A stretch of DNA of 64,000 bases from NCBI GenBank assembly GCA_004297205.1, contig SCUL01000002.1, positions 316,594-380,593 on the forward strand, read 5' to 3'. The stretch comes from Patescibacteria group bacterium (lineage in GTDB: Bacteria; Patescibacteriota; Patescibacteriia; 2-12-FULL-57-11). Of this stretch, positions 2,079 through 50,138 are shown in pieces. The position numbers and the translations under genes were made by a program. The notes under the pieces were generated by a model. It had not been told where the DNA came from, did not search any database, and worked only from the letters and a program-made list of their open reading frames with translations. Within the stretch, counting starts at the first letter, position 1. Every line of letters starts with the position of its first letter.

Positions 2079-3674
2079 CTAGAACTCGAGCTGGGCGCCG
2101 AACATGATGCCGGGGGCCGCGTGCGGCTCGGACTGATCCGAGTCCGCGAACCCCGCCATCCCGCGGACGAAGATCCGGGCGCGTGCGGCGCTGTCGTCGT
2201 CCCCGAGGGACACCGCCAGGTCGCCGTACCCGCCGAATCCGGTGCTGACACCGACCGTGCCGTCGCGCAGATCGGTACCGTTCGTACCGAATGCGCCCAA
2301 CGTCAGGTCGAGGTCCGCGCCGTCCGTCTCGACGAGACGGAAGCTCATCCCGGTGCCGATGCTGATGTGCAGCTCGGGGCGCCGCGTCACGGTGACGCCC
2401 GCGTAGCCCCAGAGCGACCAGCCGATGCGCGGCTGGAACCACCAGGTGCCGTCCAGTGCCAGACCGACCGTAAAGGTCTCGTCGTTGTACTGGATGGCCG
2501 GTCCGACCGAGAGGTCGAACTCGCCCGGCAGCGCAGGCCGCGCCTCGCAACGATGCGTCTCCGTGTTGTAGGAAGCGTCGGTGTCGACGCACTCCTCGAG
2601 GCACACCATGCTGTCCGTACGGACAACGCGGAGCGTCTCCGTCTCGCCGGTCGGCGCGCGGGTTTCCTCGTGGGTCACCCGTCCGTACCGCCGCCCATTG
2701 GCGAGGCACTCGTCCGCGTCGTGGAGGACCGATACCTCCTCCCAGAGGTCGGCGATCTGCTCGCGCGCCCACTGGTCGATGAACTCCGGGGTCACCGGGG
2801 GCTCACCGCCCTCCACGAACTGACGGAGGGTGACGCAGCGGGGATCGCTTTCCCCGAGACGCGCGCAGAGCCGCTGCGTACGCGGCTCGTACTCGAGCCG
2901 CAACGCACCGAGGCTGTCGTCCTCGTCACAGGCGTCGCCCTCCGCGTCGGTGTCCCTGTCGGCCTGGTCCGGGTTCGGATTCAGCCTGCAGTTATCGTAC
3001 GGAAGGCAATCCCCGGAGAGGTCCGGCACGCCGTCGTTGTCGGCGTCGAGCAGGGTGTTGCACCGTGCATCGACGACGGTCGGCAGCGGAACCGGATCGG
3101 GCGTGCGGTCGGGGCGGGGCGTCCGAGGACGTACCACCACCGGACGCGGACGGCAGCGCTCGGCGATGCGGAACCCCGCTGCGGGGCTGCACCACGACGC
3201 CGTCGTCGACCGGGCGTTGCGGCAGTGCCGCCCCGCCGAGCCGCTCGCACACTGGCATGCCTCCCGGGTATCCCCGGGCGCACACCAGGTGCCGTGACCG
3301 CGCTGCGTACAGATGCCCTCGCACGCGAGGTCGGGCATGTCCGCGGTGCGACCGCACTCGCCGCTGGCGATGATGCTCACCGCGGCGGCGAGCGCCTCCT
3401 GCGTCAGACGCAGGTTGGCGGCGCAGGTCACGTTCCGCTCCTCGCAGGCCGTGAGGCCGCGAGAAGCCTCGGTGATGAGCTCCCGCGCACGCCGCTCGTG
3501 CTCGGGGTCGCCGGTACCGCAGATCGCGGTCATCCCCTCGGCGCGCCGCTGAATCTCCCACGCGTTGTGACACGCGGGGATCGCGGCGCACTCGGCCGTT
3601 TCCTGCGCCTCCGCGGGAGCGGCGGCGAGGACGGCGGCCGTCAGGACGAGACCGATCAGAATCTTCTCACGCAT
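2079..3674 (-). CDS. Secreted protein with thrombospondin-type-3-like Ca-binding repeats (DADNDGVPD, NPNPDQADRDTDAEGDACD) and a beta-rich C-terminal domain ending in ...FGAQLEF.
   Basis: The ORF track starts at 3710, but the likely start is the internal Met (MREKILIGLVLTAAVLAAAPAEA, a signal peptide), which is preceded by GGAGGAA. The C-terminus has an alternating hydrophobic pattern with a terminal Phe. Confidence 0.6.
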   Translation of the reverse strand: MREKILIGLVLTAAVLAAAPAEAQETAECAAIPACHNAWEIQRRAEGMTAICGTGDPEHERRARELITEASRGLTACEERNVTCAANLRLTQEALAAAVSIIASGECGRTADMPDLACEGICTQRGHGTWCAPGDTREACQCASGSAGRHCRNARSTTASWCSPAAGFRIAERCRPRPVVVRPRTPRPDRTPDPVPLPTVVDARCNTLLDADNDGVPDLSGDCLPYDNCRLNPNPDQADRDTDAEGDACDEDDSLGALRLEYEPRTQRLCARLGESDPRCVTLRQFVEGGEPPVTPEFIDQWAREQIADLWEEVSVLHDADECLANGRRYGRVTHEETRAPTGETETLRVVRTDSMVCLEECVDTDASYNTETHRCEARPALPGEFDLSVGPAIQYNDETFTVGLALDGTWWFQPRIGWSLWGYAGVTVTRRPELHISIGTGMSFRLVETDGADLDLTLGAFGTNGTDLRDGTVGVSTGFGGYGDLAVSLGDDDSAARARIFVRGMAGFADSDQSEPHAAPGIMFGAQLEF

Positions 3675-17781: not shown

Positions 17782-17922
17782 AGCGTTCTGAGGGTTACTG
17801 AGTGAACCGTCCTCTAGGTGCACCTATACCTGGAGATACACGGCTATGAGCTGAGGGGTTACAAAATATATCCTCCGCTCGTGACAGCCTAAATTGCTTC
17901 CGCTTAATCAATCTTTACCTGA

Positions 17923-18663
17923 TTAGCGCCATAGCCCGAACCAGTGTAGGCCGGTCTTCAGTCTATAGATGACTCCTGCTCGCCAAATTCTGAAGATATG
18001 CCAAACGTACGGAAGGGGGTTGCCATTCTTTAAATCATGGAACGTATTCTCGAGTGTCCAACGGAGATCAATTTCTTTCTTTGAATGCGAAGCTCCCTTC
18101 TCATCAAAAAAATTTCCATGTATATCCTCAAAAACAAGTTCATAAGTGTACTTCGATAATACAAAAGGAGAACCTGGGGCAACAGACCTGTACTCTCTTA
18201 GGAGTTTTGCGTCAGCCGTACCCTCTGTTTCGAGGTGGAAAACGACATCGATCCGTTTTGCTTCACAGCTGTCTAGCCTAAGCGGTATCGCAACGTTTTG
18301 ACCACTGTTTGGATCGATAACACTGTCGGGATTGAAGCCGAAACGCAAGGTTGCGTTTTTATACTTTGGGTGCCAAACAACCAAATATACGTTCACGATC
18401 GATGTTGGCCAGTCGCTCTTGTTTTTAATTGTTCCAGCAATAGCTATTCTGTATTTCCCGACACGGTCTCCATCTTTCACCATCGTGCCCGATCGTCCAC
18501 GCATGTCAAACCTTATGCTTGGGGTTTTCCGAATGGCCTGAAGAACAGAGTAGGGTAGCAAAAAGAGACCTGAAATTGACCCGACGTTCAATAGGAGGTT
18601 CGCCCAGTCAAACCCTGGAGGAATACCCAACGTACTAGAGGTCATGATATGTCTGATAGACAA
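17923..18663 (-). CDS. Hypothetical protein (246 aa) in the lower-GC region.
   Basis: Long ORF with AT-shifted codon usage relative to its flanks. No recognisable motifs. Confidence 0.4.
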   Translation of the reverse strand: MSIRHIMTSSTLGIPPGFDWANLLLNVGSISGLFLLPYSVLQAIRKTPSIRFDMRGRSGTMVKDGDRVGKYRIAIAGTIKNKSDWPTSIVNVYLVVWHPKYKNATLRFGFNPDSVIDPNSGQNVAIPLRLDSCEAKRIDVVFHLETEGTADAKLLREYRSVAPGSPFVLSKYTYELVFEDIHGNFFDEKGASHSKKEIDLRWTLENTFHDLKNGNPLPYVWHIFRIWRAGVIYRLKTGLHWFGLWR

Positions 18664-18781
18664 ATGTAGCTGGGAAAAATCCTAGCACCAGAGACCAGTC
18701 CTAACAATTTCTTACCCTAAACAGATGAATCTAAGCCATCTGGACAGCCCCGATTCTCCCTGCTACACTGTGGCCACATTT

Positions 18782-18859
18782 GGGGCCGTGGTGTAGCCCG
18801 GTTAACACGTCTCCCTGTCACGGAGAAGACCGAGGGTTCGAATCCCTTCGGCCCCGCCA
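18782..18859 (+). tRNA. tRNA-Asp (anticodon GTC), CCA encoded.
   Basis: Cloverleaf read directly. Acceptor GGGGCCG / CGGCCCC. Anticodon arm TCTCC-CTGTCAC-GGAGA. T-loop TTCGAAT. Terminator hairpin directly downstream (18861-18892). Confidence 0.85.
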
Positions 18860-18987
18860 GAAAAAACCTCGCATAGAGCGAGGTTTTTTCTGCGTAAACA
18901 AAACACTGACGTAGTACTCCTCTTGACGAAGGTATGGGGTGACGGCAGATCAGGTTAAGATGCAGGATCTGGGGAAATCCCTTATCA

Positions 18988-20091
18988 TTGGGAGGCTATA
19001 TGAGGAAAGGAGCGAACGAACTAAAAAGCGTTGAGCTATTCACCGGGGCCGGTGGGTTGGCCATGGGACTTGAGTTGGCCGGTTTCCAACACGAGGCGCT
19101 TATCGAATGGGACCATGACTCTTGCGAGACCATCAGAGAGAACCAGCGACGGGGCTTTGCCTTGGTAAGAGACTGGAAGATATACGAAGGGGACGCCCGC
19201 GCCTTCGATTATAAGAACATCTACTCCCCTGTTCACTTGGTTGCGGGTGGGCCGCCGTGCCAGCCCTTCTCTCTGGCAGGTAAACATGGTGGGTTCAATG
19301 ATTCGAGAGACATGTGGGGCGAGGCGGTTAGGGCGGTAAGAGAATTAAGACCCCAAGCCTTCATTTTTGAGAACGTCAAAGGTTTACTCAGATCGACGTT
19401 CAGCGACTACTTCAAGTATGTGCTCGCCCAATTAGCGAACCCTAGTTTAACAAAGGAACGGAAAAGCTCCTGGATCAAGCACTCCCTTCGGCTGCGGACC
19501 GAGGGCCAGCCCGAATACATTGTTCAGTACAAACTTCTGAACGCGGCTGACTATGGTGTTCCCCAAAAGCGTGAGCGCGTCTTCATTGTTGGATTCAGGG
19601 CAGACCTCGGTATCGATTGGAAGTTCCCCGAGCCGACGCATGTTGGGAAATGGGTCACGGTTCGGCAAGCGATCTCTGACCTACCCGCTGTTTCCCCAAA
19701 GAAACCTCGCAGCAATGTTTCGAACCATCTGTTCCAAGCAGGAGCGAAGTTTTATAAAGGACACACGGGAAGCAAGCTCGATCTACCAGCAAAGACCCTG
19801 AAGGCTGGAACGCACGGTGTGCCGGGCGGTGAAAACATGCTTGTGGACGATAAAGGTCATTGCAGATACTTTTCCGTTAGAGAAGCTGCTCGCCTTCAGT
19901 GTTTCCCTGATGGTTACGTATTTCCAGTATCCTGGTCTGAGAGCATGCGTCAGCTGGGCAACGCGGTTCCGGTACAACTGGGAAAAGTCGTTGGCCAAAG
20001 CGTTGCCGCCGTTCTTAAAAAGTCAGCCGCTACTGATCCACGGGTGATGAGCGAATTCTATGACGGAAGAAAAAAACTACAACCCGCTTGA
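18988..20091 (+). CDS. DNA cytosine-C5 methyltransferase (Dcm-like, Type II M subunit).
   Basis: Motif I LFTGAGG, motif IV GPPCQPFS, motif VI FENVKGL. Confidence 0.85.
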   Translation: MGGYMRKGANELKSVELFTGAGGLAMGLELAGFQHEALIEWDHDSCETIRENQRRGFALVRDWKIYEGDARAFDYKNIYSPVHLVAGGPPCQPFSLAGKHGGFNDSRDMWGEAVRAVRELRPQAFIFENVKGLLRSTFSDYFKYVLAQLANPSLTKERKSSWIKHSLRLRTEGQPEYIVQYKLLNAADYGVPQKRERVFIVGFRADLGIDWKFPEPTHVGKWVTVRQAISDLPAVSPKKPRSNVSNHLFQAGAKFYKGHTGSKLDLPAKTLKAGTHGVPGGENMLVDDKGHCRYFSVREAARLQCFPDGYVFPVSWSESMRQLGNAVPVQLGKVVGQSVAAVLKKSAATDPRVMSEFYDGRKKLQPA

Positions 20092-20665
20092 AAAGAAACA
20101 TATTGGTGAAAGCGTTGTTCGCGCCCTCATGGAGGAGCCGGTTCAATCCCTTGGATTAATTGAACCATTCGATGGGGTGGGTGTGTACGTAATCTACTAC
20201 GTTGGCGAGTTTCCTGCCTACAAGGCAGTCGCCGCCGCGAACTCCGACAAAGAATTCAAACAGCCTATCTACGTGGGCAAAGCTGTTCCGAAGGGGGCAC
20301 GTAAAGGTATTGAAACTCAGATAGATCAAGAACTCTATAAGAGACTGAGCGAACACGGCGAGTCGATCAAGCAGAGCGATAGCCTTGAGATAGCGGACTT
20401 CTTCTGCAGGTATCTTACGGTCGATGATATTTGGATTCCACTTGGTGAGAGCTTGTTGATCGAGATGTACAAACCCGTTTGGAATGTCTTGCTCGACGGG
20501 TTTGGCAACCACGACCCCGGAAGCGGCAGGTACAAACAGATGCGGTCGCGGTGGGACGTCTTGCACCCTGGACGTTCTTGGGCGAACAGGTGCAAGCCAA
20601 GGCAGGAAACTCAAAATGATCTAATCACGCTGACTCGTAAGTACTTGGCTGGTACCAACAAATGA
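20060..20665 (+). CDS. GIY-YIG-family Type II restriction endonuclease-like protein (Eco29kI/NgoMIII-like).
   Basis: GVYVIYYVGE ... PIYVGKA is a GIY-YIG pair with about 20-aa spacing. About 200 aa, located between the C5-MTase and vsr. Overlaps the MTase gene's 3' end. Confidence 0.55.
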   Translation: MTEEKNYNPLEKKHIGESVVRALMEEPVQSLGLIEPFDGVGVYVIYYVGEFPAYKAVAAANSDKEFKQPIYVGKAVPKGARKGIETQIDQELYKRLSEHGESIKQSDSLEIADFFCRYLTVDDIWIPLGESLLIEMYKPVWNVLLDGFGNHDPGSGRYKQMRSRWDVLHPGRSWANRCKPRQETQNDLITLTRKYLAGTNK

Positions 20666-21129
20666 AAGGCCAGCTCGCGAGGCTCGCAAAGAAGGGTAGA
20701 AAGAAGAGGGGCGTCGTTCGTCGTGATCTTCTTTCTCGCAAAGAGAGAAGTTTACGGATGTCCAAGATCCGCAGCAGGGACACCAACTTCGAGAAACTCG
20801 TCATCCCTGCGCTGCGAAAAGCTGGCGTGCGGTTCCGAACCCACTACCGGGGAATTATCGGCACACCAGATATTGTTAACACAAAAAAGAAAGTCGCGAT
20901 CTTCCTAGACAGCGACTTTTGGCACGGTTGGCGGTATCCCGCCTGGAAGAACAACCTCTCGAAATCCTGGAGTAAGAAGATTCTGCAGAACAGACTTAGA
21001 GACCGACGTGTAACTCGTCGTCTAAGGTCCAGCGGCTGGAAGGTGATCAGGGTATGGGAGCATCAACTCGCAACCGACTACGCTGAGACTCTAAGAGATC
21101 TGAAACGAATTCTTGGAACGATAAGCTGA
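20662..21129 (+). CDS. vsr: Very-short-patch repair endonuclease Vsr.
   Basis: MSKIRSRDTNFEKLVIPALRKAGVRFR...PDIV...KKVAIFLDSDFWHGW is a Vsr signature. The true start is probably the internal Met at about 20758. Confidence 0.8.
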   Translation: MKGQLARLAKKGRKKRGVVRRDLLSRKERSLRMSKIRSRDTNFEKLVIPALRKAGVRFRTHYRGIIGTPDIVNTKKKVAIFLDSDFWHGWRYPAWKNNLSKSWSKKILQNRLRDRRVTRRLRSSGWKVIRVWEHQLATDYAETLRDLKRILGTIS

Positions 21130-21153
21130 ACCCTTCCGGCCCCGCCAGAAAAA
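21128..21153 (+). repeat. Direct repeat (about 25 bp) of the tRNA-Asp 3' end (cccttc(c)ggccccgccagaaaaa). Candidate attR of an island integrated at tRNA-Asp.
   Basis: Matches 18839-18865 with 1 indel and 1 mismatch. Lies immediately after the vsr stop. Confidence 0.55.
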
Positions 21154-21274
21154 GCGCTCGTCCTTGCGACGGGCGCTTTTTCTTTTTTTGACCCTCTTCC
21201 GGCCGGCCGGATGTCCGTATTCGTATGATGCCGTTTCGTGGCATATACTTCAGCAGTCGCTGACTAATCAATAA

Positions 21275-21463
21275 TTGATGCTCATTATGAAACAATTTCT
21301 CCTGTACTTTGTTCTCGAATTCATCATCATTTTTGTCGTCGGGTCTGCGGGGTACCTGGTATTACAAGTCCCCTTGAATCTCCCTCAAATTCTTATCTCC
21401 TCTATTACTGCTGGCGCAGTTATCGCTTTTGCTCAGCAAAAGTTGCTGAAGCGCAATGGATAA
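21275..21463 (+). CDS. Possible small two-TM membrane protein (62 aa).
   Basis: AT-rich ORF with two hydrophobic helices, overlapping the tag start. Weak. Confidence 0.3.
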   Translation: MMLIMKQFLLYFVLEFIIIFVVGSAGYLVLQVPLNLPQILISSITAGAVIAFAQQKLLKRNG

Positions 21464-22016
21464 GCCCCGCTGCCCATGGCCTGCCACAGACCCGCTCATG
21501 ATCGCCTACCACGACACGGAGTGGGGCGTGCCGGTGCATGACGGTCAGAAGATCTACGAGTTCCTGGTGCTGGAAACGTTCCAGGCCGGGCTTTCTTGGC
21601 GCACCGTGCTCCACAAACGGGAAAACTTCCGGAAGGCCTTTCACGGCTTCGATGTGGCAAAGGTCGCCCGCATGGACGCCCGCGCCACGCAGAGCCTGCT
21701 CGGTGACGCCGGCATCATCCGCAACCGTCAAAAGATCGCCGCGGCGGTGAACAACGCCCAACGCTTCCTGGAAGTTCAAAAAGAGTTCGGCACGTTTTCC
21801 AAGTACATGTGGACCTGGGTCGGTGGCAAAGCCGTACGCCACGCCTTCAAAACACCCGGCGAGTGTCCGGTGACCACGGACGAGGCTGTTGTGTGGTCGA
21901 AGGATCTCAAGAAGCGCGGCTTCTCATTTCTCGGCCCGACCGTTGTCTACGCGCACATGCAAGCCGTGGGCATGGTGAATGATCACTTGGTGAGCTGCTT
22001 TCGATATGCGCGTTGA
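21456..22016 (+). CDS. tag: DNA-3-methyladenine glycosylase I.
   Basis: CPWPATDPLMIAYHDTEWGVPVHDGQKIYEFLVLETFQAGLSWRTVL...RNRQKI is the Tag family. Terminator ccgcatcagttggtgcgg plus ttttt downstream. Confidence 0.85.
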   Translation: MDKPRCPWPATDPLMIAYHDTEWGVPVHDGQKIYEFLVLETFQAGLSWRTVLHKRENFRKAFHGFDVAKVARMDARATQSLLGDAGIIRNRQKIAAAVNNAQRFLEVQKEFGTFSKYMWTWVGGKAVRHAFKTPGECPVTTDEAVVWSKDLKKRGFSFLGPTVVYAHMQAVGMVNDHLVSCFRYAR

Positions 22017-22456
22017 CCGAACTTTTAATCCGTACGACTCCGCCAAAAAACAGCTCCGCATCAGTTGGTGCGGTTTTTATAGTTATCAACAAACACCCGC
22101 GTTGACAGCTTCGCAAAAACGAGCGTAGCCTTGAAGATGATGAGGCCACGCCCCAACCGAACAACCGGCGGACTGAGGTCTCGATAGGCTGCACTAAGCA
22201 GTCGGTGGCGCTGTCGAACCATCTAAAGAATTTCGTTCGCTTTTATGGCAAAAACAAAGACTTCGACCTACGGAAAGCAACACCAGAAGATCGTTCCCGT
22301 CCGTGGGTACAAGAGGGACGGTAAGAGGATTAAACCTCACCGCCGTTCCACCCCTAACTAATAATTGTAGTTAGGACGTTGACTGCGACCTCCTGTGTAC
22401 GACAGACACACCGGGTCCAAAAAAGCCGCCTCACGCGAGGCGACTTTTTGGACACT

Positions 22457-23212
22457 CTACCTGTTTACACTAAGCTGACAGCCATTTGTTTCTTCTCCAG
22501 TTGTGGGATTCCAACATTTATAAGCAAGTGTGACATTCTCAACCAGCCCCCTTCTGTCCGTAGTCGATAGCGCGATATTGAATGTTACATGGCTGTTTAC
22601 ATTCAAAAGCTTTGACCAATCAGCGATCCTGTAATCCTTCGCTGAAGGATCGAACGGCAGTCCCGGTAGGTAGGAAATCGATTCAAGAGGCAGTAGCGCT
22701 TCCGTGTACTTATCATTGCTACTTGCAAGTATTCCTCTGCCCAGGAGGATGTGACCGCCAAACTCGTGAGGATTCACATAAACACTCTCGTATTTCTGAT
22801 CAAGGGGATGTCCGCTCCGGCTAGCCCGAATGTACAAATATCCGCAAGCCACATCATCCTTTCCTCCAATCTGTACCACCAACTTCACACTTCCAACAAA
22901 CTCGCCGCCTTCGCCGTGGCTAGCGAGATTGTCCGCGAGCTTGAGTGACTGTCCGCGTTTCACCAGATCCTCATATTCAGGAAAGGTCTTGTCGCAAGAG
23001 GGCGGTGCGACAACAACCCTCTCTTCCTTCACCACCTCTCTTACGACTTCTCTAATCTTCCCTTCTTCGGGCGTTGAGACAAACTTCAAAATTGAAGTTG
23101 AGACGACAACAAATAAAACACCAATTACAACGACTGCCAGTAACTGGCCCAACACTTTAAGGAATTTGTTGTCGTCTTTTCCCATAGGAAATGGTTGTAT
23201 ATACCACCACAA
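22457..23212 (-). CDS. Hypothetical membrane-anchored protein (low GC).
   Basis: ORF with N-terminal TM LLAVVVIGVLFVVV. Bidirectional terminator at 22411-22445. Confidence 0.4.
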   Translation of the reverse strand: MWWYIQPFPMGKDDNKFLKVLGQLLAVVVIGVLFVVVSTSILKFVSTPEEGKIREVVREVVKEERVVVAPPSCDKTFPEYEDLVKRGQSLKLADNLASHGEGGEFVGSVKLVVQIGGKDDVACGYLYIRASRSGHPLDQKYESVYVNPHEFGGHILLGRGILASSNDKYTEALLPLESISYLPGLPFDPSAKDYRIADWSKLLNVNSHVTFNIALSTTDRRGLVENVTLAYKCWNPTTGEETNGCQLSVNR

Positions 23213-23546
23213 TTATCAGCAGTAGGGCTGTCATCGAAATCACTAAATAATGTAAGAACGGGGGCCAACCAGCGAGATCATCGAGTAGACTTGCCTGAAC
23301 TTTCAAAATTGAAACGAAACCAGAAAGGATGATGAAGAAAAAAACCATCACTACACCGAAGACGACTGCAGTCAATCCCACATTTGATGAGGGGGAAAGA
23401 ACGGTCACAAGCATGCCAAACCAGCTAAGAAAGCAGGCAGCTGAGACAGCCGCCACAAGCTTTTTCTTCCCCACCCTCATCAACCTTACGTAAGTCGACG
23501 GGATGACCATCTTGAGAACTTTTCTGACCATCGTCAAGGAGTCCAC
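23157..23546 (-). CDS. Hypothetical small membrane protein (3-4 TM helices).
   Basis: Hydrophobic ORF. The start is uncertain because it overlaps the downstream gene. Confidence 0.35.
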   Translation of the reverse strand: MDSLTMVRKVLKMVIPSTYVRLMRVGKKKLVAAVSAACFLSWFGMLVTVLSPSSNVGLTAVVFGVVMVFFFIILSGFVSILKVQASLLDDLAGWPPFLHYLVISMTALLLIIVVVYTTISYGKRRQQIP

Positions 23547-23558
23547 TATTACTCAGTT

Positions 23559-23936
23559 TCACGAGTGCAACGCGATCCGATTCCCCTCCGTGTCCATGAC
23601 CACCGCCATAAACCCATGCTCCGGTGAAATCTGCTTTTTCGGCATCAGCACTTTGCCGCCGGCGGGTTCGACGCGGGCGATCGTGGCATCGATGTCGGGC
23701 GCCGTGAAGTAGATGAGGACGCCGTCCTGGGATGGCTTGTAGAAGTCGGGATGCCGGACGAGCGAACCCATCGCCCCGGTTGCATCCGGTTTGGACGACG
23801 AGAACCACGCCATCTCGAGCGGCCCCAGCTGCTGACGCTGCAATTTCATACCAAGCACCGCCTCGTAGAACACAGTGGCCCGATCCATGTCCGTGACCGG
23901 AATCTCGAACCACCCGACGGGATTGAAGTCAGCCAT
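23559..23936 (-). CDS. VOC/glyoxalase-family protein.
   Basis: GWFEIPVTDMDRATVFYEAVLG ... GGKVLMP...HGFMAVVMDTEGNRIALHS is a typical glyoxalase/bleomycin-resistance fold. Confidence 0.6.
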   Translation of the reverse strand: MADFNPVGWFEIPVTDMDRATVFYEAVLGMKLQRQQLGPLEMAWFSSSKPDATGAMGSLVRHPDFYKPSQDGVLIYFTAPDIDATIARVEPAGGKVLMPKKQISPEHGFMAVVMDTEGNRIALHS

Positions 23937-23943
23937 AGAGCTG

Positions 23944-25422
23944 TTAGCCGCGGAACAATTCCAGCGACAACCGCTTCGGCCCCATGGCGTCGCGCTCCAC
24001 CGAACCCATCACGAACAGCAGGTCGTTCCCCTTTTTGCAGAGTTTGCGCTTCACGGCTTCTTTCACCAGCTGCTTCTTGGCGCGCGTTGCGTCCTTAGTG
24101 GCCGTGAGCAAGATCGGCGTCACGCCCCAGGAGAGTGCGAGCTGCCGGGCAACGCGGGGGCTGAAGGCACCGACCGCGACCGGCACGTCCGGCCGAAAGC
24201 GGGAGAGGCGGCGGCCCATGCGGCCGGAGACGGAGACGGAGAGGATGGCACAGGCCGGCGTCATGCGGGCGAGGGCTGCCGCAGTTTTGGAAATGGCCAT
24301 GCGCGCTTCCGTGGGTTCGACGCCGACAATGTCGATGCGCACGTCGTCGTAGCGGGACTTTTCCGTTTCCTCGGCGGTCTGGGCCATGATCTTCACGGCC
24401 TGCAGCGGGAACGCGCCGGTGGCGGTCTCGCCGGAGAGCATCACGGCGTCGGTGTGGTCGATCACGGCATTAGCCACGTCCGAAACTTCGGCGCGGGTCG
24501 GACGCGGATTGCGGATCATGGAGTCGAGCATCTGCGTGGCCACGATCACCGGCTTGCCTGCCGTCAAGCACTTCTCGATCATGCGCTTCTGATGGACCGG
24601 CACGTCGGCAGCCGGCGTTTCCACGCCGAGGTCGCCGCGCGCCACCATGACGGCGTCGGAGGCGGCCAGGATCTCGTCGAAGTTGTCGAGCGCCTGGGGT
24701 TTTTCGATTTTGGAAATGATCATGATCGGCGCGTCGCGCTTGATGCGCGCCTTGCGCTCTTCGCTCGCGATCAAACGGCGCAACAGTTCGACGTCTTTTG
24801 CCGAGCGGACAAAGCTGAGCGCGATGTAGTCGACGCCGGCGCGCACCCCGAAGGCCACGTCGGCCTTGTCTTTGGGCGTCAGCGCGGGGATGGACAAGGT
24901 CGCCGTCGGGAAGTTCATGCCTTTATGCGACGTCAGCACACCACCGGTGACCACATGGCAGATGATGTCGCGCCCGCTGACCTTCTGGACCATGACTTCC
25001 AGCAAGCCATCGTCGAGCAGCAAACGGTCGCCAGGCTTCACGTCCTCATGCAGCTTTTTGTAGCCGACCGGAATCTTCCCCGCCCCGACGGTTCCCCTAA
25101 CCACTCTTGAGGGTTCGGCGGGGGTCTTCCCGGCCGCGCCCGTGGTGAAGGTCACGGTGCTGCCGTTCACGAGCCGCACACCTTCTTTCGGCAAATCGCC
25201 CACCCGGATCTTCGGCCCCTGGAGGTCCTGGAGAATGGCCACGGTCGTCCCGGCCTTCTTGGCGGCTTGGAGCACGCGGCGCATCAGGCGCGCATGGTCG
25301 GCATGGCTGCCATGGCTGAAGTTGAAGCGCGCCATGTTCATGCCCGCCTTGATCATCTTCTCGAGCATGACCGGCTTCTTCGAAGCCGGGCCGATGGTGC
25401 AGACGATTTTGGTGCGTTTCAT
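23944..25422 (-). CDS. pyk: Pyruvate kinase.
   Basis: MKRTKIVCTIGPAS...MARFNFSHG...KIENQEG-like and MVARGDLG motifs. Confidence 0.9.
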   Translation of the reverse strand: MKRTKIVCTIGPASKKPVMLEKMIKAGMNMARFNFSHGSHADHARLMRRVLQAAKKAGTTVAILQDLQGPKIRVGDLPKEGVRLVNGSTVTFTTGAAGKTPAEPSRVVRGTVGAGKIPVGYKKLHEDVKPGDRLLLDDGLLEVMVQKVSGRDIICHVVTGGVLTSHKGMNFPTATLSIPALTPKDKADVAFGVRAGVDYIALSFVRSAKDVELLRRLIASEERKARIKRDAPIMIISKIEKPQALDNFDEILAASDAVMVARGDLGVETPAADVPVHQKRMIEKCLTAGKPVIVATQMLDSMIRNPRPTRAEVSDVANAVIDHTDAVMLSGETATGAFPLQAVKIMAQTAEETEKSRYDDVRIDIVGVEPTEARMAISKTAAALARMTPACAILSVSVSGRMGRRLSRFRPDVPVAVGAFSPRVARQLALSWGVTPILLTATKDATRAKKQLVKEAVKRKLCKKGNDLLFVMGSVERDAMGPKRLSLELFRG

Positions 25423-33848: not shown

Positions 33849-36800
33849 TCAGGGGAAGAATCCGCCGCCAAAACCGCCGCCCGGCACAGGGGAACTGCCC
33901 GACGGAATGCAGCTGTCAGCCACGCAGATGAACCCGGCGCGGCACGAGACCGAGCAGCGGATGAAGCCGCCGCCCGATGCGGACGTCCGGCAGGCAGGAT
34001 AACTGGGTTCAAGCCGGGCGCAGGTGCACGAGCCGCCGGAGACCACGACGTCTTCAAGGTCTGAGCACCCGCCGCCGCCGGTGTCGGGAATCGGACACGG
34101 GCGCGCGTCGAGGCGGCAGCGTCCGTCCACGCAGGTGCGCGCCGGATCGTCGCACGTTCCTCCGCCGGAGCCGCCCGGGGGCGACCCGCCCGGCGGAACA
34201 CCGACGGCACCGCCCTCTTCGTCGACGACGACGCCGTCGCCGTCCGTGGGGTCGGCGGGGGCTGCGGGGCTGCGCGACGGCACGCAGGCGAACCCTCCGG
34301 GAGGAGGAGGCGGCGGGTCGCCGTAGACGAGCGGGCAGGCGTTGAAGCGTACGGCGCTGACCCGGATCTGGACGCCCGCGCCGGCATCAATGCGCAGCGG
34401 CAGAAGCTGCGGCGTGCGGCTGCAAGTGATGCTGCCGAGGGGCACCGTGGCCGAGCGGCGGATCGTGATCGGACCCGTGCTGACGGGAGCCGTCGCGCCG
34501 ACGGGGGGGCCGACGGTGATCGTCCCCGCGACGACGGCGCTCGTGACTGCCGTGCCGATGGCGCTGCCGATGTCGACCGAGGCGTCGAGCGTGGTGGCCA
34601 CGAAACGGTTCGCGGACGGGGCGATCGACTCCATGGCGCGAATGCAGCCGTACCAGTCGTCGATCATCGAAAAACGACCGGCCGCGCACATCTCCTGGAC
34701 GGAGCCGAATTCGCTGAGATACGTCTCGTCTTCCGCCACGCGCAGCGTGAAATTCCGGTACCGGGGGCCGACGGCTCCGACGGGCGTGCTGTGGGTACGC
34801 TCGTGGTTTTCGCAGCCTTCCGGCGCGCAGCTGGAACCGCGGGAGAAGAAATGGTCGTCGGACTGCAAACCGTCGGACACCAGGATGACGATGCGCTGTT
34901 CCGCCCCGTCGGCATCGAGGATGGCCGTGGCGCGCTCCATCGCGGCCTTGCCCGGCGAGACGTCCCTACCGCTTCCCGACGTGATCATGCGCAGCCCCTG
35001 GACGGTGGTCTTCAACTCCTCACGGCCGATGGCGTTCAGAACGACCAATTCCGGTGCGCCGGTCAACGCGGTCAGGGTCCGAACGTTCCCCTCGTACCGG
35101 CTCCCCTGGTAGAGGATCGGTCCCGACGGGTTGGCGTTCAGGCCGCCGAAGGCCAGGATGCCCATCTTCAAGTCGGTCACCGACCCGGGGAACGAATTGT
35201 AAATCTGGTCGATCACGCCGTCGGCGCCGGCAACCACGTTCTTGGCGATGTCGAAGCGGGACGGCGTGCCGCCGGTGCCGTTCGGCAGGAGGCCCATGCT
35301 GCGCGAGACGTCGAACACCAACAGGACCGAGGTCCGGCGGCCGACGGTGCCCACCGGGGTCAGGTCGGCCACAATCTGCATGTCCGTGTCGATCGTCGAC
35401 GCGCCCGTCTGGCAGGCCGGAATCACCAGGTCGTGCGTCACCGCGCCGCTGTCGACGACGGCCTCGCCCAGCGTGCGGTCGGAGATGAAGCCGCCGGGGC
35501 TGTGCGGCTGGAGCCGGATTTCGAGCTGCGAGAACGTCGGCGGGCAGGCCTGGCGGCAGTCGCCGGAGCAGTGCGTGTCGCGCGTCGCTCCTTCCACGCA
35601 GGAGACGTCGTTCGGTTCGCACAGTTCGTACGGCCGTTCGACGACGCCGTTGCCGCAGTAACCGCCGGAGACCGAGATGCCGCGGCAGACGTTGGTGCAG
35701 AAGTTGCAGGAGCGGCCGTAGGCGCAGGAGGCGCGGGCCCGGGCGATCGACGAGGGGTTGGAGGCGTCGATGTTGTCGGCGCCGCTGTCGCACTCTTCGC
35801 CGGCCGGATTGACGATGCGGTCGCCGCAGACGTTGCGCACGCAGGTGTTCAGGCAGCCGTCGTTCTGGTTGCGGTTGCCGTCGTCGCACTCTTCGCCGGC
35901 CTCGCGCTGGACGACGCCGTCGCCGCAGCTCGAAACGACCGAGCAGGCGCTCCAGGCGCCGAAGCCGGTGCAGGCGGCCACGCAGGTGCGGGAGCGACGC
36001 ATTTCGCGGCCGTCCGGATCCGTGCCGCAGACTTCGCTTTCGGTCTGGCCCGGTTCGCAGATTTCCCCGTAAGAGATTTCACCGTCGCCGCAGTACGGAC
36101 CGAAGTTGCGGCAGTCAGGAGCGCAGCTCGCCGCCCGCGAGGCGTTGTAGCGGGTCGTGCCCAAGCAGGCGGACCCGTCGGCGCAGCCGCCGGCGCCGCC
36201 GAAGTTGCACGTCGCGCCGGAGCCTGCGCAGCGTCCGCCGAGATCACAGACTTCCCCGGCCTGGCGGTTGCCGTCGCCGCAGTGCGGGCCCAAGCCCGTG
36301 CAGAGTCCGTTGCAGCGGCCATAGGTGTTGTTCAGCGAGCCGTCGTCGCAGGCCTCGGGCGGCGAAAGAATCCCGTCGCCGCAGCGCGCCGGAGCGCAGC
36401 TGCCGTAGGTCTTGGTGCAGGTGTCGGAGCACGTCCAGCGCATGCCGCCGGCGCCGCCCGCAATCGTGCACGCCTCGACCCCGGTGTCGCCGATTTCGCA
36501 CTGCTCGCCCGGTCCGATCGAGCCGTCGCCGCAGACGCCGTCCGAGGCGCTGAGGAGCCCCTCGTCGGTGGCGCGCGCCTGGCAGACGTCCTGGAGGCGG
36601 AAGACGTTCAGGATGCCGGTTTCCGGATGGCTGACCGGTTCGACCGGATCGGCCCAGTTCAGGACACGGCAGGTGCCGCCCGTACAGTCGGCATCCTGGC
36701 TGCAGAGCCGGTTGGGATCGGTCGAGCAGAAACGCAGTTCGAACTCGGCGCCGAACTCGAAGCCCCGGCCGCGCTTGCGATACTCGTAGATGCGCGATCC

Positions 36801-39800
36801 GGCCGGGCACTGGTAGGTCTGGGCCGAGGCATTCCAGCAGGTTTCCGCCTCGTAGCCTTCGGCCGTCGAACAGGCCGCGCCCTCCGCGCTCGCCGTGTTG
36901 AAGGTATTGAGCGGATCCTGCGGCAGCGCGCCGCCCAGCACGTTGCCCAAACCCGACTGCCAGGACGGCCAGCGGCTCGTGGACAGGCCGCGGATGTAGG
37001 AGCCGGAGGCCAGGGTCGGGTAGCTGCCGATGCAGCGGTCGCCGGCGCCGCAGTCGGCGTCGCGGATGCAGGTCGTTTCCGGCCGGTCTTCGCAGACCGA
37101 GGCCAGACCGTAGGCCGTTTCCATCTTGGCGCCAACTTCGGCCAGGTCCTGGAGGCGCAGCACGTCGCGCGTGAACTTGTCCTTGGGCGCGCGGCAGGTG
37201 CCGCCGACGGCGCCGCACTCGGCGTCCTGCTGGCAGGACAGCGGGCCGCACGTGGCGCCCGTGCCGCAATCGCCGTCCGTGACGCAGGCGCGGCCGGCGT
37301 CGTCGCTGCACACGTTGACCGAGCAGGTGCGGGCGTTGTCCCCGGCCAGGTTGGTGTTGAAACGCAGGTTCTCCATCATCTGCCGGAAAATCGTCTGCGT
37401 CGTCTCGTTGGCGCCCTCGTTGTAGGACATCAAGTAGACGTTGGTGTAGAGCTGCGGATCGCCGAACTTGTTGCCGGCGTTGATGTAGACGCTGCGGCCG
37501 TCCTGCACGGCGTCGTAGCCGTCCACCTCGACCGGCACTGGAGAACCGGTGAAGCCCTGTTTGGCGTACCAACGGGCCGGCTCGTCATGTGCGCGGTTGC
37601 GGAGGATGCGGATGCCGAAGGCATCGCCCGGCTGGCAGAGGTCGGATGCGCCGGTGCACTGCAAGGGCAGGAGCTTGTCGCCAATGATGCCCAAGAGCGC
37701 GGAGCCGGGCGCGGCCCCTGCGCCGATCGAAACCGCTGCGTCGGCGGGCGACGGCAGGTCGTCATGCCGCCCCGCCTCGCCGGCATCGCGGCAGAAATAG
37801 GTCGAGAAGTTGAAATCGTCGTCCGTGAACGGCGTCCAGGTGCCGTCGGCGGCGCGGCTCGGCCAGGGATTCTCGCAGAGCAAAACCGTGGCCAGTGCGC
37901 TGCCCGAGGCGGTTTCTCCGTAGCAGTGGCCGGCCGTGGCCGAACCGGCGGCGGCGCAGCGCCGCCCGCGGCCGCATGCCAGCTCCTGCGCGGTGATGTC
38001 CCCCGTCGGATCGCAGGCCGCGCCGAAGATGTTGGCCGTGACCGTGGCCTGCGCGGTAATGGTGGCCTGGCCGTTCTGCGGCTGGCCGATGGTGCGCAGC
38101 GTCATGGCCTCGCTCGAGGAACTCGGATACGTGAAGTGGATCGGCGCCGGATCGCCGTCGCGGTCGCCGTCGGAGGAAGCCCAATCCCAGACCCAAGAGT
38201 ACGTGGCGACCGGCACGATCGGCACGACGCGGGCGCCGCGGCGCGAGACGCCCTGGGAGCGGAACACCTTGTCGCTGTCGTCGAGTGTGTCGAAGGAGGC
38301 GCCCGGCGCGTCGTCGCGCGGATCGTTTTGGGCGGTCGAGAAGAGCGACGACTGCGGGATCACGCGCACCTGGTCGAGACGGCAGATTTCCGTACCGGTG
38401 GTGAAACTCCAGGAGGCGTCGCCGGACATGGGCACGCCGTCGATCGAACGCACGCCGGTCTTTTCGGCGTCGGTCAGGTCCGGGTCACCCTTCACGAGCA
38501 CGCGGAATTCGGTGCTCGGTGCCAGCGCCTCGCGCGGCGAGACCTGAAGCTCGGTCACGAGTCCGCCGCCGGCCACCGTTTTCTGCAGGTCGGCGATCAG
38601 CACCGTGCTCGAGGAGACGCAGAACCCGGCCACTCCTGCGCCGCGTCCGGCGGCGCAGGGTCCGACCGTGCGCTCCAGGAGCAACACGTTGCCGATGAAG
38701 GAACCGGCGTCCATGCGCATGTTGAACGTCGCCGCCATCAGCGTGTTGCGGCAGACGTCGGCACCCTCCGGCGTGAACGGCGGAACGAGTTGCGGACGCG
38801 GCGCACAGCAGCCGCCGTTGCCGCAGCCGATCGAGCCGGCCCGGGCGCCCGGAGCGAGCGTGGCGCAGTCGTTGTCGACCGTACAGGAGCAGACCATCTG
38901 GAAGCCGGCCGTGCCGGTCACGGTGTCGCCCGCGGCGTTGCGCGTGGCGACGGTCAGGTCGGCGGTGCCGCCGGCCGCGCCGCGCACGTAGCTGTCCGGA
39001 TCCGGACGGCCGTCGGTGGGACCGCCGAATTCGCACTGTTCCCCGGTTTCCACCGGCACGTTCGTGCCGCAGTAGGCGGCCGAGGTGAAGCTGTAGCCGT
39101 AGCGCGGGTTGGAGCCCTCGAGCGTGCAGCGCTCGGAGCAGCCGTCGCCGGCGTCGGGGTTGCCGTCGTCGCAGGATTCGAAACGGGCAGGTTCGAGGAT
39201 GCCGTTGCCGCAGCAACCGGCGGCAGGGCCGCCCGCGCCCGGCGTGCAGGCCGTGCGGTTGCCTTCGGCCAGGCAGCGCTCGGAGCAGCCGTCGCCGCTG
39301 CGGACGTTGCCGTCGTCGCAGACTTCGCCGGATTCGAGCCGCCCGTTGCCGCAGACCGAGAACGGCCCGGGCAGGGTGCCTTCATTGATGCAGGAGGCCG
39401 AACAGCCGTCGCCGGAAGCGGTATTGCCATCGTCGCAATCCTCCCCTTCCCCGACGTCGCCGTTGCCGCAGGTGGCGCCGCCCCCGGCGGAGCCTTCGTG
39501 CGTGCAACGCTCGGTGCAGCCGTCGCCGTTCAGGACGTTGCCATCATCGCAATCCTCGCCGGCGGTACGCGTGCCGTTGCCGCAGGCCGGCGCCGAGGTT
39601 CCTTCGTTCAGACAGACGGCCGAGCAACTGTCGCCACCTGTCGTCCCGCCATCATCGCAATCCTCGCCGCGCTCGGTGCGCCCGTTGCCGCAGACTGAGA
39701 CGGAGCCGACGGAGCCGGTGAGCAAACAGGCGTTGGAGCAGGATTCGCCGCCGGCCAGCGGGAGCAGATCCTTGCCCTCCGTGCCGCTGCCCGGCGTGCT

Positions 39801-42800
39801 GCGGAAATCGACCGTGCCGACGGCGCCGCCGACCGCGGCCGAGACCGCGGCGTTGGCCGAGGTCCAATCCCACGAGTACCGTCCGCCGTCGAGCGGTTGG
39901 CCGCCGGCGTCGCAGTCGTCCGGCAAGCCGCGGGGGATGACGATGTAGTGGGCGACGTCGCCGATGATCTGGACCGAAGCGTTCGGCGGCGAGACGCTGA
40001 CGCTGGCCACGTCGCACAACGCGCTGTCGTCCTTGGTACGGAAGGTCCAGGAATAATCGTCGCCGTAGTTGCCGTCGGCCAGCGGCGCGCCGGAGCGCGA
40101 GCGCACGCCGTCGTCGCCGCCGGAGACGATGACGCGGTACCAGCTGCTGCGGGCGAGCTGCGCGGCGCCGGACGGACGGATCTGGAAACCCGTGGTGCGC
40201 CCGTCGGCGTCGACCGTGCCCTCCACGGAGAAGTCCGGCACGCCGCCCGCCTCGAGGAAGGCGCGGCACGATTCGTTGACGCAGGTGAACAGCCGGACCG
40301 TGCGGGCGTTGATCGTGGCCGGGTCCATGGCCACGTTGAAGGACGCCGCGACGCGGGCGTTGACGCAGGCTGCGGAACACATCGGCGTGTGTTCGCCCAC
40401 GCGCGGATCAAGGTAGTTGATGTCGAGCACGCCGACGTCCGACTTGCCGGCCGCCGGGATTTCCGCGCGGACGTGGACCGGATTGTCGGTTTCGGTTTCG
40501 TTGAGTGCGGTCGCCACGTAGCGGCAGGAATTCGGTTCCACGGGATCAGCCGCGTCGTCGGCCAGCGTGGCGCGCGTCGAGGCGTCGCTGCCATCGGCAA
40601 GTGCGTGGCTCCAGCGCCAGTCGTAGGCCGTGCACATCAGCAGGTTGCAGTTCGCCGCCGTCGGATCGGCGCGATAGTCGACGGCTTCGCCTTCGCCCGT
40701 GGCCGTGAAGACGGCCGGCGAGACTTCGACGTGATCGACGCCGCAGGCCTCGTCGTTCGGCCGGATGCGGTAGGGCCAGACGTAGTCGCCGCCAGGCGCG
40801 TCGTCGCGGTCGCCGTCGAGCGCGATGCCCTCGACGCTGCGGATGCCGACATCCCCCGCCGCGAGCGTGACCCGGTACCAGGTGCTCGAGGCGAAGGCCG
40901 CTTCCGGCGTGAACGTCATGCGGCTCGTGTAACGCGCGGTGGCGCCGACGACGACGGATTCGCGCAGCACTTCGACGCGGCCGCGCAGCGGCGTGCCGGT
41001 GCAGGCGCCGCTGTCGAAGCCGTCGCCCTGGCCGCAGGCCTCGACCGCGACGTTCGTCGGGAAACTGGCCGGGTCCATTTCGGCCGTGAAGCGCGCCGAG
41101 ATGATGGCATTGGCGCAGGCATCGCGGGAACCCCGGTAGGGCGACGGACTCTGCGTGTCGGTTTCACAGGTGGCTTGTTCCACGACGCGCGGCAGCACGG
41201 GGACGTCACCGGTCGAGAAGCGCCACACGAAAGCGCCGGTCGGCGTGCGCACCGTGCAGTCGGCGCGGCAGGAACCGTCCGCGCAGCAGGACGTGCCGGC
41301 GGTGCAGGAGGCGTCGTCGCGGCACTGGCCGACCGTAAACGGTAGGGAGTTGGAAATGACGCCGCCGAGCGCTTCGACCGAGACCGGACCGGTCGCGGCC
41401 GCAAACGGCACGCGGGCGTTCTGGATTTCGGTGTCGGCCCAGGGGCCGTCCACGGTGGAGGCCTGGCCGTCGAAGAAGGTCACCTCGCCCGAGGTGGAGC
41501 CGAAGCGTTCGCCCAGAAGTCGCACGCGGGTGTCGGCCGGACCGTTATCCGGATCGATGGCGCAGAGTCCCGGATGCGGCACGCCGTCGGTCACCGTAAA
41601 ATTCACGGTGTTGGATTGCGCGCCGTCGGCGCGTTCCAGGCGGATGTTGTGGGCGGCCAGGGAAATGGGGGTGCGGCCGCCGGCGTCGCCGCGGTAAAAC
41701 GCCGGCACTTTGACGGTCACGGCGGCGTCGGTCCAATAGCGTTCGGCGCAGATGGCCGGGAAATCGACGGCACCGTCGGCGGTGGTGCCGTCCGGCAGCT
41801 GGAAGAGCACGCGGCCGACGCGCGCGCCGAAGTTGCTGCCGCGCAGGGTCACGTATTCCGACACCGGACCGGAGCTCGGCTCAATGGCCGTGACGTTCGG
41901 CAGCGTCCCCGCCTCCGGCGACAGGGCGCGGAAACTCTTGCGGTTGGATTCGTTCGTGCCCACGCGCACCCGGACCGTCCCGTCCGTTTCCACGGTCACG
42001 GCGAGCGACGGCACGCGGCCGCGGATCTCCGTCGGGGACCAATCGGCGTCGCTGGTGCCGGCAGCCGAATCCCGCCCGCCGACCGCGAACAGCACGCTGC
42101 CATCCGTGCCCGGATCTTCGCCGAAACCGGCACCCGTCAACGTGAAGCCGTCGCCCGTCCGCCCGCTCGACGGCTCGATGCGGCAGATGCCGGGGCGCGT
42201 CGTAGCGTTGACGGTGAAGACGCCGAGCAGGTTGGGACCGCGGGCGTCGTCGGTGTCGTCCTGCTCCCCGCCCGCCGCGGAGACGCGGATCGGGCCGGTC
42301 ACGGCGCCGGCGGGAACCGTCACGGTGATTTCGCGGTCCGTCCGGGCGCCGCCGTCGCACAGCGCCGCGGTCACGTCGTCGTCCGCGCCGGGACCGCCCA
42401 GGAACGTCACCTGGCCGGAGCCGCCGAAGGCGCGGCCGGCGACGGACACCAGCGTGCCCGGGCCGCCGTCCGTGGGCGAGACGCTTTCAATCATCGGCAC
42501 GTCCACGCAGGTACCGCTGCGGCACACCCCGCCCGCGCAGTCTGCCGGGCCGCCGCAGGACCCGCCGCCGCAAGCGCCGCACGAACCGCCGCAGTCGACG
42601 CCGGTTTCGTCGCCGTCCTGGACGCCGCTGCCGCAATGCCGCGGCCGCACGGCCACGGAGACGCCGGATACCGAGACCGAGTTGTCGTCCAAATCAAAGG
42701 CCGTGCCGCCGATCGAGTGGGTGCCCACCGTCACGCCGGTCGTATCCCAATCCACGGTCCCCGTGAAATCCGGAGACAGCGCCGCCGGAACGGTGCGGCC

Positions 42801-49760: not shown

Positions 49761-49798
49761 CAACGCTCCGATTGCGCGGAGCATTGCAGGCGAGACAG

Positions 49799-49920
49799 TC
49801 CCGCGGAACCGGACCCGTAGTTGTCGTTCGGCTTGTCGTCCCAGTTCCAGTTGAGCTTCGGCCTCCTGTTCCAGTTGCCGAGGTTGGTCACGTTCCGGGC
49901 GTCGTCGGCGTGGACGGAGC
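49799..49920 (-). repeat. DGR template repeat (TR), 122 bp.
   Basis: Matches 50239-50360 at 101 of 122 positions. All 21 mismatches are T on the plus strand (A on the minus strand) in this copy versus C/A/G in the other. In the VR frame it encodes many AAC (Asn) codons. Confidence 0.85.
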
Positions 49921-50138
49921 GAAATATTGCCGGACCCCATCCGATGCACTGCGCCTTCCGTTCATGCGGTCGGCGCTGTATTTCATGCCGGGGCATGTCC
50001 CCGTCAGGATCCGGCAAGGAGTGTCTCGTTGGAATCGCACGCTTCCGCCGCGATGCGACGGAACTCTGGCGATGACTCTTTCGAGGATTTCGGGGACGGC
50101 AAGAAATACTCCGACCGTACATGACCCTACTCTCCACG

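Follow-up and report, generated by a model that had tools for sequence, protein, structure and literature searches.

A 64,000-nucleotide (nt) stretch of DNA from a Patescibacteria group bacterium (assembly GCA_004297205.1, contig SCUL01000002.1, positions 316,594 to 380,593), referred to here as the window, harbors a tRNA-Asp gene followed on the same strand by three genes. These encode a C5 cytosine DNA methyltransferase (M), an Eco29kI-family GIY-YIG restriction endonuclease (R) and a Vsr-type very-short-patch mismatch endonuclease (Vsr). Judging from the sequence, M-R-Vsr is a horizontally acquired Type II restriction-modification (R-M) plus Vsr module at the 3′ end of tRNA-Asp. The locus was compared with those of three relatives, L002 (JBBUJK010000025), L116 (Logan SRR22388055) and L117 (GCA_041643055.1), making four genomes with the window. 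A Logan contig from SRR8426588 is identical to positions 18800-24648 of the window, and R and the glycosylase Tag of the window have identical NCBI counterparts in a metagenome-assembled genome labelled Patescibacteria group bacterium (locus tags EPO33_, contig of 855,898 bp). The host has a high GC content and is Uhrbacteria-like. The tRNA gene, the cassette and the elements that bound it are the following, all on the + strand:

18741-18769 (+): promoter-like site of tRNA-Asp (TGGACA, 17-nt spacer, TG-TACACT), from a consensus scan; the motif is kept upstream of tRNA-Asp in L002, L116 and L117
18782-18859 (+): tRNA-Asp (GTC), 78 nt with CCA encoded, the resident target gene (ARAGORN; Rfam RF00005, 67.7 bits; 95% identical to the L117 tRNA-Asp unit)
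18840-18865 (+): proximal repeat copy (attL-like), tRNA T-loop to CCA plus 6 nt, from a repeat search
18858-18892 (+): terminator hairpin 1, perfect 15-base-pair (bp) stem between an A-run and a T-run, from an inverted-repeat search
19000-20091 (+): C5 cytosine DNA methyltransferase M, 363 amino acids (aa; longest open reading frame (ORF) from 18988), by PF00145, PADLOC, TIGR00675 and motifs
20060-20665 (+): Eco29kI-family GIY-YIG Type II restriction endonuclease R, 201 aa, by PF09517 and Protein Data Bank (PDB) entries 3mx4, 3nic and 3mx1
20662-21129 (+): Vsr-type very-short-patch mismatch endonuclease, 155 aa, a variant without the zinc site, by PF03852, TIGR00632 and PDB 1cw0
21128-21153 (+): distal repeat copy (attR-like), slightly degenerate, starting 2 nt inside the Vsr stop codon (23/26 identity)
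21147-21183 (+): terminator hairpin 2, 16-bp stem plus T-run, which ends the M-R-Vsr operon, from a terminator scan and inverted-repeat search

The M-R-Vsr cassette

The methyltransferase matches PF00145 (DNA_methylase) in Pfam (1.1e-59, 202.9 bits), MTase_II in PADLOC (2.2e-110) and TIGR00675 dcm (166 bits against a cut-off of 100.65), and motifs I (FTGAGG), IV (PPCQPFS), VI (ENV), VIII (QKRER) and X (GNAVP) can be read in its translation. The restriction enzyme matches PF09517 (RE_Eco29kI) over profile positions 1-158 of 164 (8.1e-69, 231 bits against a cut-off of 30.8), REase_II in PADLOC (1.7e-66) and the three R.Eco29kI structures 3mx4, 3nic and 3mx1 (E of about 3e-42). The six active-site residues of R.Eco29kI have been established by mutagenesis (PMC1952068). 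Their counterparts in R are Y43, Y71, R95, H99, E130 and N142, which align to Y49, Y76, R104, H108, E142 and N154, the catalytic columns being marked by the PDB mutant entries Y49F and E142Q; none of the six varies when R is aligned with eleven homologues. An earlier, sequence-only reading of this DNA had placed tRNA-Asp, a C5 methyltransferase, a GIY-YIG ORF and vsr where ARAGORN, Rfam and Pfam also find them. It had called the middle ORF Eco29kI-like and named loss of the catalytic residues as grounds for giving that assignment up; with all six in place, R is a true member of the family. The NCBI annotation likewise calls R an Eco29kI family restriction endonuclease, and the genes of the cassette are already named there.

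M and R overlap by 32 nt and R and Vsr by 4 nt (ATGA), and as expected from these overlaps the three genes are predicted to form one operon. Eco29kI itself, from the E. coli plasmid pECO29 (structures 3MX1, 3MX4 and 3NIC; isoschizomer Cfr42I), likewise pairs R with an overlapping C5 methyltransferase, and M of the window is about 48% identical to a sequence on an E. coli plasmid with a gene for an Eco29kI-family restriction endonuclease. The two systems differ in three respects. R precedes M in Eco29kI (PMC3039593), whereas M precedes R here, which is how most of the family is arranged (30 of 31 viral loci). Eco29kI has no such attached Vsr gene, and it resides on a small plasmid, while the present cassette is chromosomal and lies at a tRNA gene.

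From what is known of their families, M would methylate a cytosine in the recognition site, R would cut unmethylated incoming DNA, and Vsr would nick the T:G mismatches that arise by deamination of 5-methylcytosine, limiting C-to-T decay. By analogy, the recognition site is probably CCGCGG, which occurs in the host at a density of about 1.8 sites per kb. If this is the site, its 106 occurrences in 58 kb would entail a heavy 5-methylcytosine load, so that a Vsr is plausibly useful.

The Vsr assignment rests on PF03852 (1.5e-18, 66.8 bits against a cut-off of 27), on TIGR00632, which is passed narrowly (98.8 bits against 97.85), and on PDB 1cw0 (4.8e-14). In a five-sequence alignment PD and FWH are invariant, and the equivalents of the catalytic residues Asp51 and His69 of E. 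coli Vsr are kept. The zinc ligands of the E. coli enzyme we take, from the literature on the 1VSR/1CW0 structures, to be Cys66, His71, Cys73 and Cys117. At these positions D, W, Y and H stand in the Vsr of the window (20662-21129) and also in that of its closest relative, the M-R-Vsr cassette L029 (8608-9087), whereas the ligands are present (H-G-C...C...WEC) in the Vsr proteins of Burkholderia phage Milagro and a Rhizobium plasmid, both described below. The arrangement is reminiscent of E. coli dcm-vsr, where a C5 methyltransferase gene is also linked to vsr. There, however, vsr overlaps the methyltransferase gene, while here it lies downstream of R within a complete R-M system, and the zinc site is absent from the protein.

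The duplicated tRNA end

The direct repeat of about 25 bp of the tRNA 3′ end that had been proposed to close the module holds up on careful alignment. Its proximal copy (18840-18865, GAATCCCTTCGGCCCCGCCAGAAAAA) and its distal copy (21128-21153, GAACCCTTCCGGCCCCGCCAGAAAAA) agree at 23 of 26 positions without gaps and at 25 with two 1-nt indels, and they share an exact core of 16 nt. No other match to the 26-nt repeat with three or fewer mismatches exists within the 64-kb window, and no comparable match arose in 100 dinucleotide-preserving or 300 block shuffles. An Rfam scan found nothing except the tRNA. The two copies start 2,288 nt apart, and the Vsr stop codon overlaps the distal copy by 2 nt, so that the repeats bracket only the 2.26-kb cassette.

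The insert consists of hairpin 1 (18858-18892), a leader of about 100 nt, M, R and Vsr, after which hairpin 2 (21147-21183), a strong terminator, follows. In BLAST comparisons with L116 and L117 the tRNA unit is homologous up to 18864, where the proximal repeat ends, and no homology to the relatives was found beyond it. A comparison with strains lacking the insert had been suggested as a check. In L117 a 95%-identical tRNA-Asp stands in the same orientation upstream of tag, the resident DNA-3-methyladenine glycosylase gene, with no cassette but with other lineage-specific DNA after its terminator. Hairpin 1 is predicted to insulate the tRNA gene from the cassette and probably arrived together with it. 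Hairpin 2 may be the original tRNA-Asp terminator; the distal copy shares CCCTTCCGGCCC with the tRNA-Asp of L117, and the 5′ arm of hairpin 2, CGCTCGTC, is identical to that of the L117 terminator.

Related cassettes on mobile DNA

The same M-R-Vsr trio, at 65% nt identity, lies in another low-GC patch (L029) on an unrelated contig of 60-65% GC, with no homology in the flanks. Candidate flanking repeats of the L029 cassette were set aside, as their 14/15 match is at chance level by our estimate. Eco29kI-family M-R pairs are found on 31 IMG/VR contigs, nine of them with Vsr. In Burkholderia phage Milagro, a Vsr-M-R cluster lies about 2 kb from a tyrosine integrase, and Rhizobium leguminosarum plasmid pR132502 carries the same three families. 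Cassettes of this type are clearly mobile. The phage and plasmid morons (Milagro, pR132502) resemble the cassette of the window in carrying the three families as one operon, on mobile DNA in their case. They differ in gene order, which is Vsr-M-R there and M-R-Vsr in the window and L029, and in their zinc ligands. In contrast to the phage morons, the cassette of the window stands without phage genes or an integrase.

A related M-R pair (R 64% identical in aa) is also found beside SMODS- and SAVED-domain genes on a 5.3-kb metagenomic contig (L031, 550-5265). This pairing is typical of CBASS (cyclic-oligonucleotide-based antiphage signaling) systems and makes this contig another small defence-gene cluster.

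Mode of acquisition

We consider it likely that the cassette is an R-M moron of a phage or island, placed where it is by site-specific insertion targeted at the tRNA, and that its integrase has been lost or was supplied in trans. In such an event, recombination by a tyrosine integrase within the segment of the tRNA gene from the T-loop to the 3′ end would have left a regenerated target and a displaced fragment. The cassette would probably have been carried in as the moron of a phage or island, and the integrase would have acted in trans or been deleted later. The R-M genes may have been retained because their loss is lethal, through post-segregational killing. With the insert came a further copy of the final ~20 nt of the tRNA and a terminator; the tRNA is therefore intact, and a degenerate 3′-end fragment and a second terminator now stand after Vsr.

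A precedent for such a footprint exists, as a regenerated tRNA end with a displaced fragment is the signature by which integrase-mediated islands are mapped in tRNA genes (PMC4383910). Furuta et al. (PMC2853133) have described R-M units that lie at tRNA genes between direct repeats and are accompanied by an integrase. Like the tRNA islands of the Islander definition and of Furuta et al. (PMC4383910, PMC2853133), the present locus combines an intact tRNA and a displaced direct 3′ fragment with foreign composition and R-M cargo. It differs from them in having no integrase gene, in being only 2.3 kb long, and in a displaced fragment of 26 nt that carries two 1-nt indels.

Several observations weigh against this account of the cassette. 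Neither the ORFs of the region nor the ~45 ORFs across the 64-kb window match any recombinase family, as the sequence-only reading had already remarked of integrases, and no attP-bearing element came to light when IMG/VR was scanned three times for exact patterns of the two repeat copies, proximal and distal. Both ends of the insert are tight, which is unusual for a decayed larger element. The repeat copies differ by their two indels, and the 5′ edge of the distal copy is ragged (the T of the T-loop is missing, and GAA is shared with the region of the Vsr stop codon). The distal copy with its terminator is only marginally closer to L117 than the proximal copy is, and this resemblance is not relied on to tell which copy is native. 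None of the relatives offers a truly empty site, L117 having other lineage-specific DNA after its tRNA terminator. Finally, the host shows no avoidance of CCGCGG (106 sites observed against 108 expected in 58 kb).

A serious though rather unlikely rival is that the cassette was inserted without any integrase. This could have happened by transformation with DNA bearing tRNA-Asp, a terminator and M-R-Vsr, where homologous recombination in the tRNA body would be combined with illegitimate microhomology joining in the T-loop (homology-facilitated illegitimate recombination), or by insertion of the R-M unit with duplication of its target. Neither route would need a site-specific recombinase to duplicate the tRNA 3′ end. 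The lack of an integrase anywhere in the window, the tight bounds of an insert that holds R-M-related genes only, the ragged left edge of the distal copy and a gene in the window for the transformation protein DprA are all consistent with it, and there are published cases of R-M systems that inserted with a duplicated target and without mobility genes (PMC2853133). M, R and Vsr are the only genes of the insert, as would suit the long-target-duplication class of Furuta et al. (PMC2853133), but its duplication of 26 nt falls short of the >30 bp of that class. The duplication also coincides exactly with the T-loop-to-3′-end segment typical of integrase att sites, and the insert provides a functional replacement of the tRNA end and a terminator of its own, as attP-bearing elements do. 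These points speak against insertion without an integrase.

A mosaic of inserts and resident genes

The cassette is one part of a longer stretch of low GC content, the remaining features of which are the following:

17923-18663 (-): 246-aa ORFan (NCBI hypothetical protein EPO33_02940, called as 240 aa), GC 0.451, GC at third codon positions (GC3) 0.47, a separate low-GC insert upstream of the tRNA-Asp promoter
21275-21463 (+): 62-aa hydrophobic ORF overlapping the tag start codon, between the distal repeat and tag, GC 0.457, GC3 0.51
21456-22016 (+): tag, DNA-3-methyladenine glycosylase I, resident core gene, PF03352 (Adenine_glyco) 1.9e-77
22026-22073 (+): third, weak copy of the tRNA 3′ end (22026-22051, 19/26), then a terminator hairpin (22056-22073), from a repeat search and terminator scan
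22457-23185 (-): 242-aa (251 from the first TTG) membrane-anchored beta-sandwich protein, from an AlphaFold model, GC3 0.49
23157-23546 (-): 129-aa hydrophobic ORF with about three transmembrane segments, as read from the translation; it shares a low-GC insert with the 242-aa gene and lies upstream of it, GC3 0.52
23559-23936 (-): VOC/glyoxalase-family protein, resident gene, PF00903 (Glyoxalase) 2.3e-12, GC3 0.80

In 500-nt windows, GC falls from 0.64-0.74 in the surroundings to 0.45-0.55 over ~17.8-23.6 kb, which confirms the drop over about 6 kb that the sequence-only reading had noticed. The drop is not uniform. Segment GC is 0.451 at 17824-18740 (the 246-aa ORFan), 0.515 at 18866-21127 (the cassette), 0.457 at 21191-21455 (the 62-aa ORF) and 0.480 at 22017-23558 (the 242/129-aa pair), with 0.68 and 0.64 in the flanks of the region; tag (0.601) and VOC (0.608) return towards host values. 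The same division is seen in GC3, which is 0.56-0.59 for M, R and Vsr. These three genes and the four unannotated ORFs lie 2.1-3.3 standard deviations under the host mean, whereas tag (0.77, z of -0.2 against host genes) and VOC (0.80, z of +0.1) lie at it. The "6-kb island" is a mosaic, in which the resident tRNA-Asp, tag and VOC genes are interspersed with three or four separate inserts of low GC, and the blocks outside the cassette (17.8-18.7, 21.2-21.45 and 22.0-23.55 kb) are separate lineage-specific inserts.

Consequently, only part of the earlier account of this region stands. M-R-Vsr was acquired, and directly after tRNA-Asp, but the single acquired island is replaced by several inserts between resident genes, and the proposal that tag and VOC are acquired cargo does not hold. 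Both are resident genes because their GC3 is that of the host mean, because tag is linked to tRNA-Asp in the relatives and because a remnant of VOC persists in L002. The Tag proteins of L002, L116 and L117 are 89-91% identical to that of the window (86-87% in nt), their genes lie within 1.4 kb of tRNA-Asp, and Tag homologues of 70-76% identity are widespread in Uhrbacteria/Patescibacteria. The VOC gene of L002 (9981-10066) is an in-frame remnant in which the first ~16 codons are joined to the last ~11, MDSNPVGWFEIPVTDM being fused to EGNRVALHS.

It is accordingly very improbable that the whole of 17,850-23,940 is one ~6-kb island at tRNA-Asp with M, R, Vsr, tag and VOC as its cargo. At coarse resolution the low GC does form one continuous zone, Pfam assigns all five genes to families that act on DNA or small electrophiles, and a weak third tRNA-end-like sequence follows tag. 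The model is nevertheless already contradicted by synteny, the tag-tRNA-Asp linkage being found in three relatives without the cassette and the VOC remnant lying at the equivalent position in L002, as well as by the host-like GC3 of the two genes. In addition, the insert is closed at 21,153 by a strong repeat ahead of tag, and low-GC DNA is also present on the upstream side of the tRNA, out of reach of an integration at the 3′ end.

The third copy lies directly after the tag stop codon, at the junction with the low-GC block that follows, and is possibly a fragment displaced at an earlier time. Matches of at least 19/26 are expected 0.0025 times in the 6-kb region on the + strand and 0.043 times in the whole window. 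All three tRNA-end-like sequences are followed by an A-run, a hairpin and a T-run, and their similarity (GAAAAA) is partly structural; yet it is hardly credible that the distal repeat is no insertion footprint at all, and is instead what is left of another, tandem tRNA gene or a fortuitous resemblance of two A-run/hairpin terminators, given that the 16-nt exact core spans the acceptor 3′ strand and CCA, that 300 shuffles gave no match of 21/26 or better, that upstream of the fragment there is no more tRNA-like sequence and only Vsr coding sequence conserved in L029, and that the copy sits exactly at the end of a foreign cassette.

No lead to a function emerged for the four unannotated ORFs. 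The 246-aa, 62-aa and 129-aa ORFs have no family match in Pfam, PADLOC, PHROGs or NCBIfam. Among 5.8 billion proteins the only homologue of the 246-aa ORFan is itself, and its AlphaFold model is poor (predicted local distance difference test score, pLDDT, 36.7). The 242-aa protein belongs to a small uncharacterized family of 113 representative clusters (E<=1e-3), none annotated. Its model (pLDDT 91) has an N-terminal helix and an all-beta domain and finds no significant match in the PDB (best E 0.03). The 440-nt gap between tag and the 242-aa gene contains a very basic small ORF of 38 aa (22245-22361, MAKTKTSTYGKQHQKIVPVRGYKRDGKRIKPHRRSTPN), uncalled in the Logan gene set, and then a terminator-like hairpin (22427-22442).

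The locus in related genomes

L002, the closest of the relatives, shares 82-87% nt identity with the core DNA of the window and 89% aa identity in pyruvate kinase. Between the tRNA unit and tag, L002, L116 and L117 have no BLAST homology to the window. The slots beside tRNA-Asp hold Type III res/mod genes in L002, a Type ISP R-M gene with ORFs of unknown function in L117 and a NERD gene with a 195-aa ORF in L116. The Type ISP gene of L117 occupies the position of the 246-aa ORFan of the window. The slot from tag to pyruvate kinase holds a SocA/Panacea pair in L002 and a zeta toxin in L116, and in L117 nothing, tag abutting pyruvate kinase. The same slots hold different genes in the relatives, and across the four genomes compared the locus is therefore a hotspot of variable defence and toxin genes. 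Islands with R-M systems are already on record from Patescibacteria genomes (PMC12455944), and as in defence-island hotspots the slots are filled by different defence or toxin genes from one genome to another. Here, in contrast, slots lie on both sides of the tRNA gene, and the tRNA unit itself is inverted between genomes.

Relative to tag, this unit of promoter, gene and terminator points one way in the window and L117 and the opposite way in L002 and L116, with promoters alike. In more distant genomes (loci L119, L123-L128) tag is without a neighbouring tRNA-Asp, and the ancestral arrangement is therefore not polarised by them, nor is the orientation polarised by the identities of tag and pyruvate kinase, which are star-like with conflicting signal. 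Among JGI metagenome contigs scanned with an alignment of tag, the best hit was 65% identical and none linked tag to tRNA-Asp. Look-ups of pyruvate kinase and of protein P0242 by exact sequence gave no match.

Further observations were made at these loci. The tRNA-Asp genes compared (window 18782-18859, L002 11862-11936, L116 3988-4062, L117 6146-6223) evolve unusually fast in this clade, their acceptor, anticodon and T stems differing by compensated pairs while tag is ~85% identical in nt; the tRNA units of the window and L002, gene and flanks included, align at only ~70% identity. The SocA/Panacea pair of L002 is of low GC and stands directly after the VOC remnant, and the stretch from the remnant to pyruvate kinase includes an LD-carboxypeptidase gene that the window lacks. 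In L116 two sequences each occur twice, a terminator-like 29-mer (1010-1038 and 3349-3377) and a sequence upstream of a NUDIX gene (1516-1536 and 3453-3503). They flank the 195-aa ORF and the NERD gene, and it is possible that they reflect an insertion with target duplication near tRNA-Asp. In at least two distant Patescibacteria genomes, tag is located directly downstream of a gene for a DpnI-family (methyl-directed) restriction endonuclease, and in one case a HEPN gene is also present (DpnI-family/tag loci: L119 1465-2510, L125 5050-6570, L126 4477-5997).

Other features of the window

Elsewhere in the window, a diversity-generating retroelement spans 48427-51054. Its 125-nt template repeat (49796-49920) and variable repeat (50236-50360) are 82% identical, and 21 of the 22 mismatches fall at template adenines when the - strand is read. 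The variable repeat forms the C-terminus of a 280-aa ORF (50212-51054, -). The reverse transcriptase is split into overlapping ORFs at 48728-49426 (-) and 48427-48894 (-), of which only the latter was scanned and matches RVT_1, and a bAvd-like ORF is found at 49347-49760 (+). A giant 3,300-aa ORF (33849-43751, -) is flanked by TSP3-repeat, immunoglobulin-like-domain and type IV secretion system pilin-like proteins.

Implications

A broader proposal, which we regard as doubtful, is that the flanks of tRNA-Asp are a hotspot of defence-gene exchange without a resident recombinase in this high-GC Patescibacteria genus. If so, minimal cassettes would bring a tRNA 3′ end and a terminator with them and be swapped through an integrase acting in trans or through tRNA-anchored transformation. 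Repeated replacement of the 3′ half of the tRNA would then explain the compensated stem changes and the switches of orientation among genomes that are ~85% identical.

The element itself is an ordinary, well-known kind of genomic islet, an R-M system at a tRNA gene, and its cargo list is corrected by returning tag and VOC to the resident genes. Its setting indicates that a tiny Patescibacteria genome keeps a variable defence-gene slot around one tRNA gene and that an addictive R-M-Vsr unit can persist without any mobility gene. The locus thus offers a concrete case for testing how minimal cassettes move in bacteria of the candidate phyla radiation.

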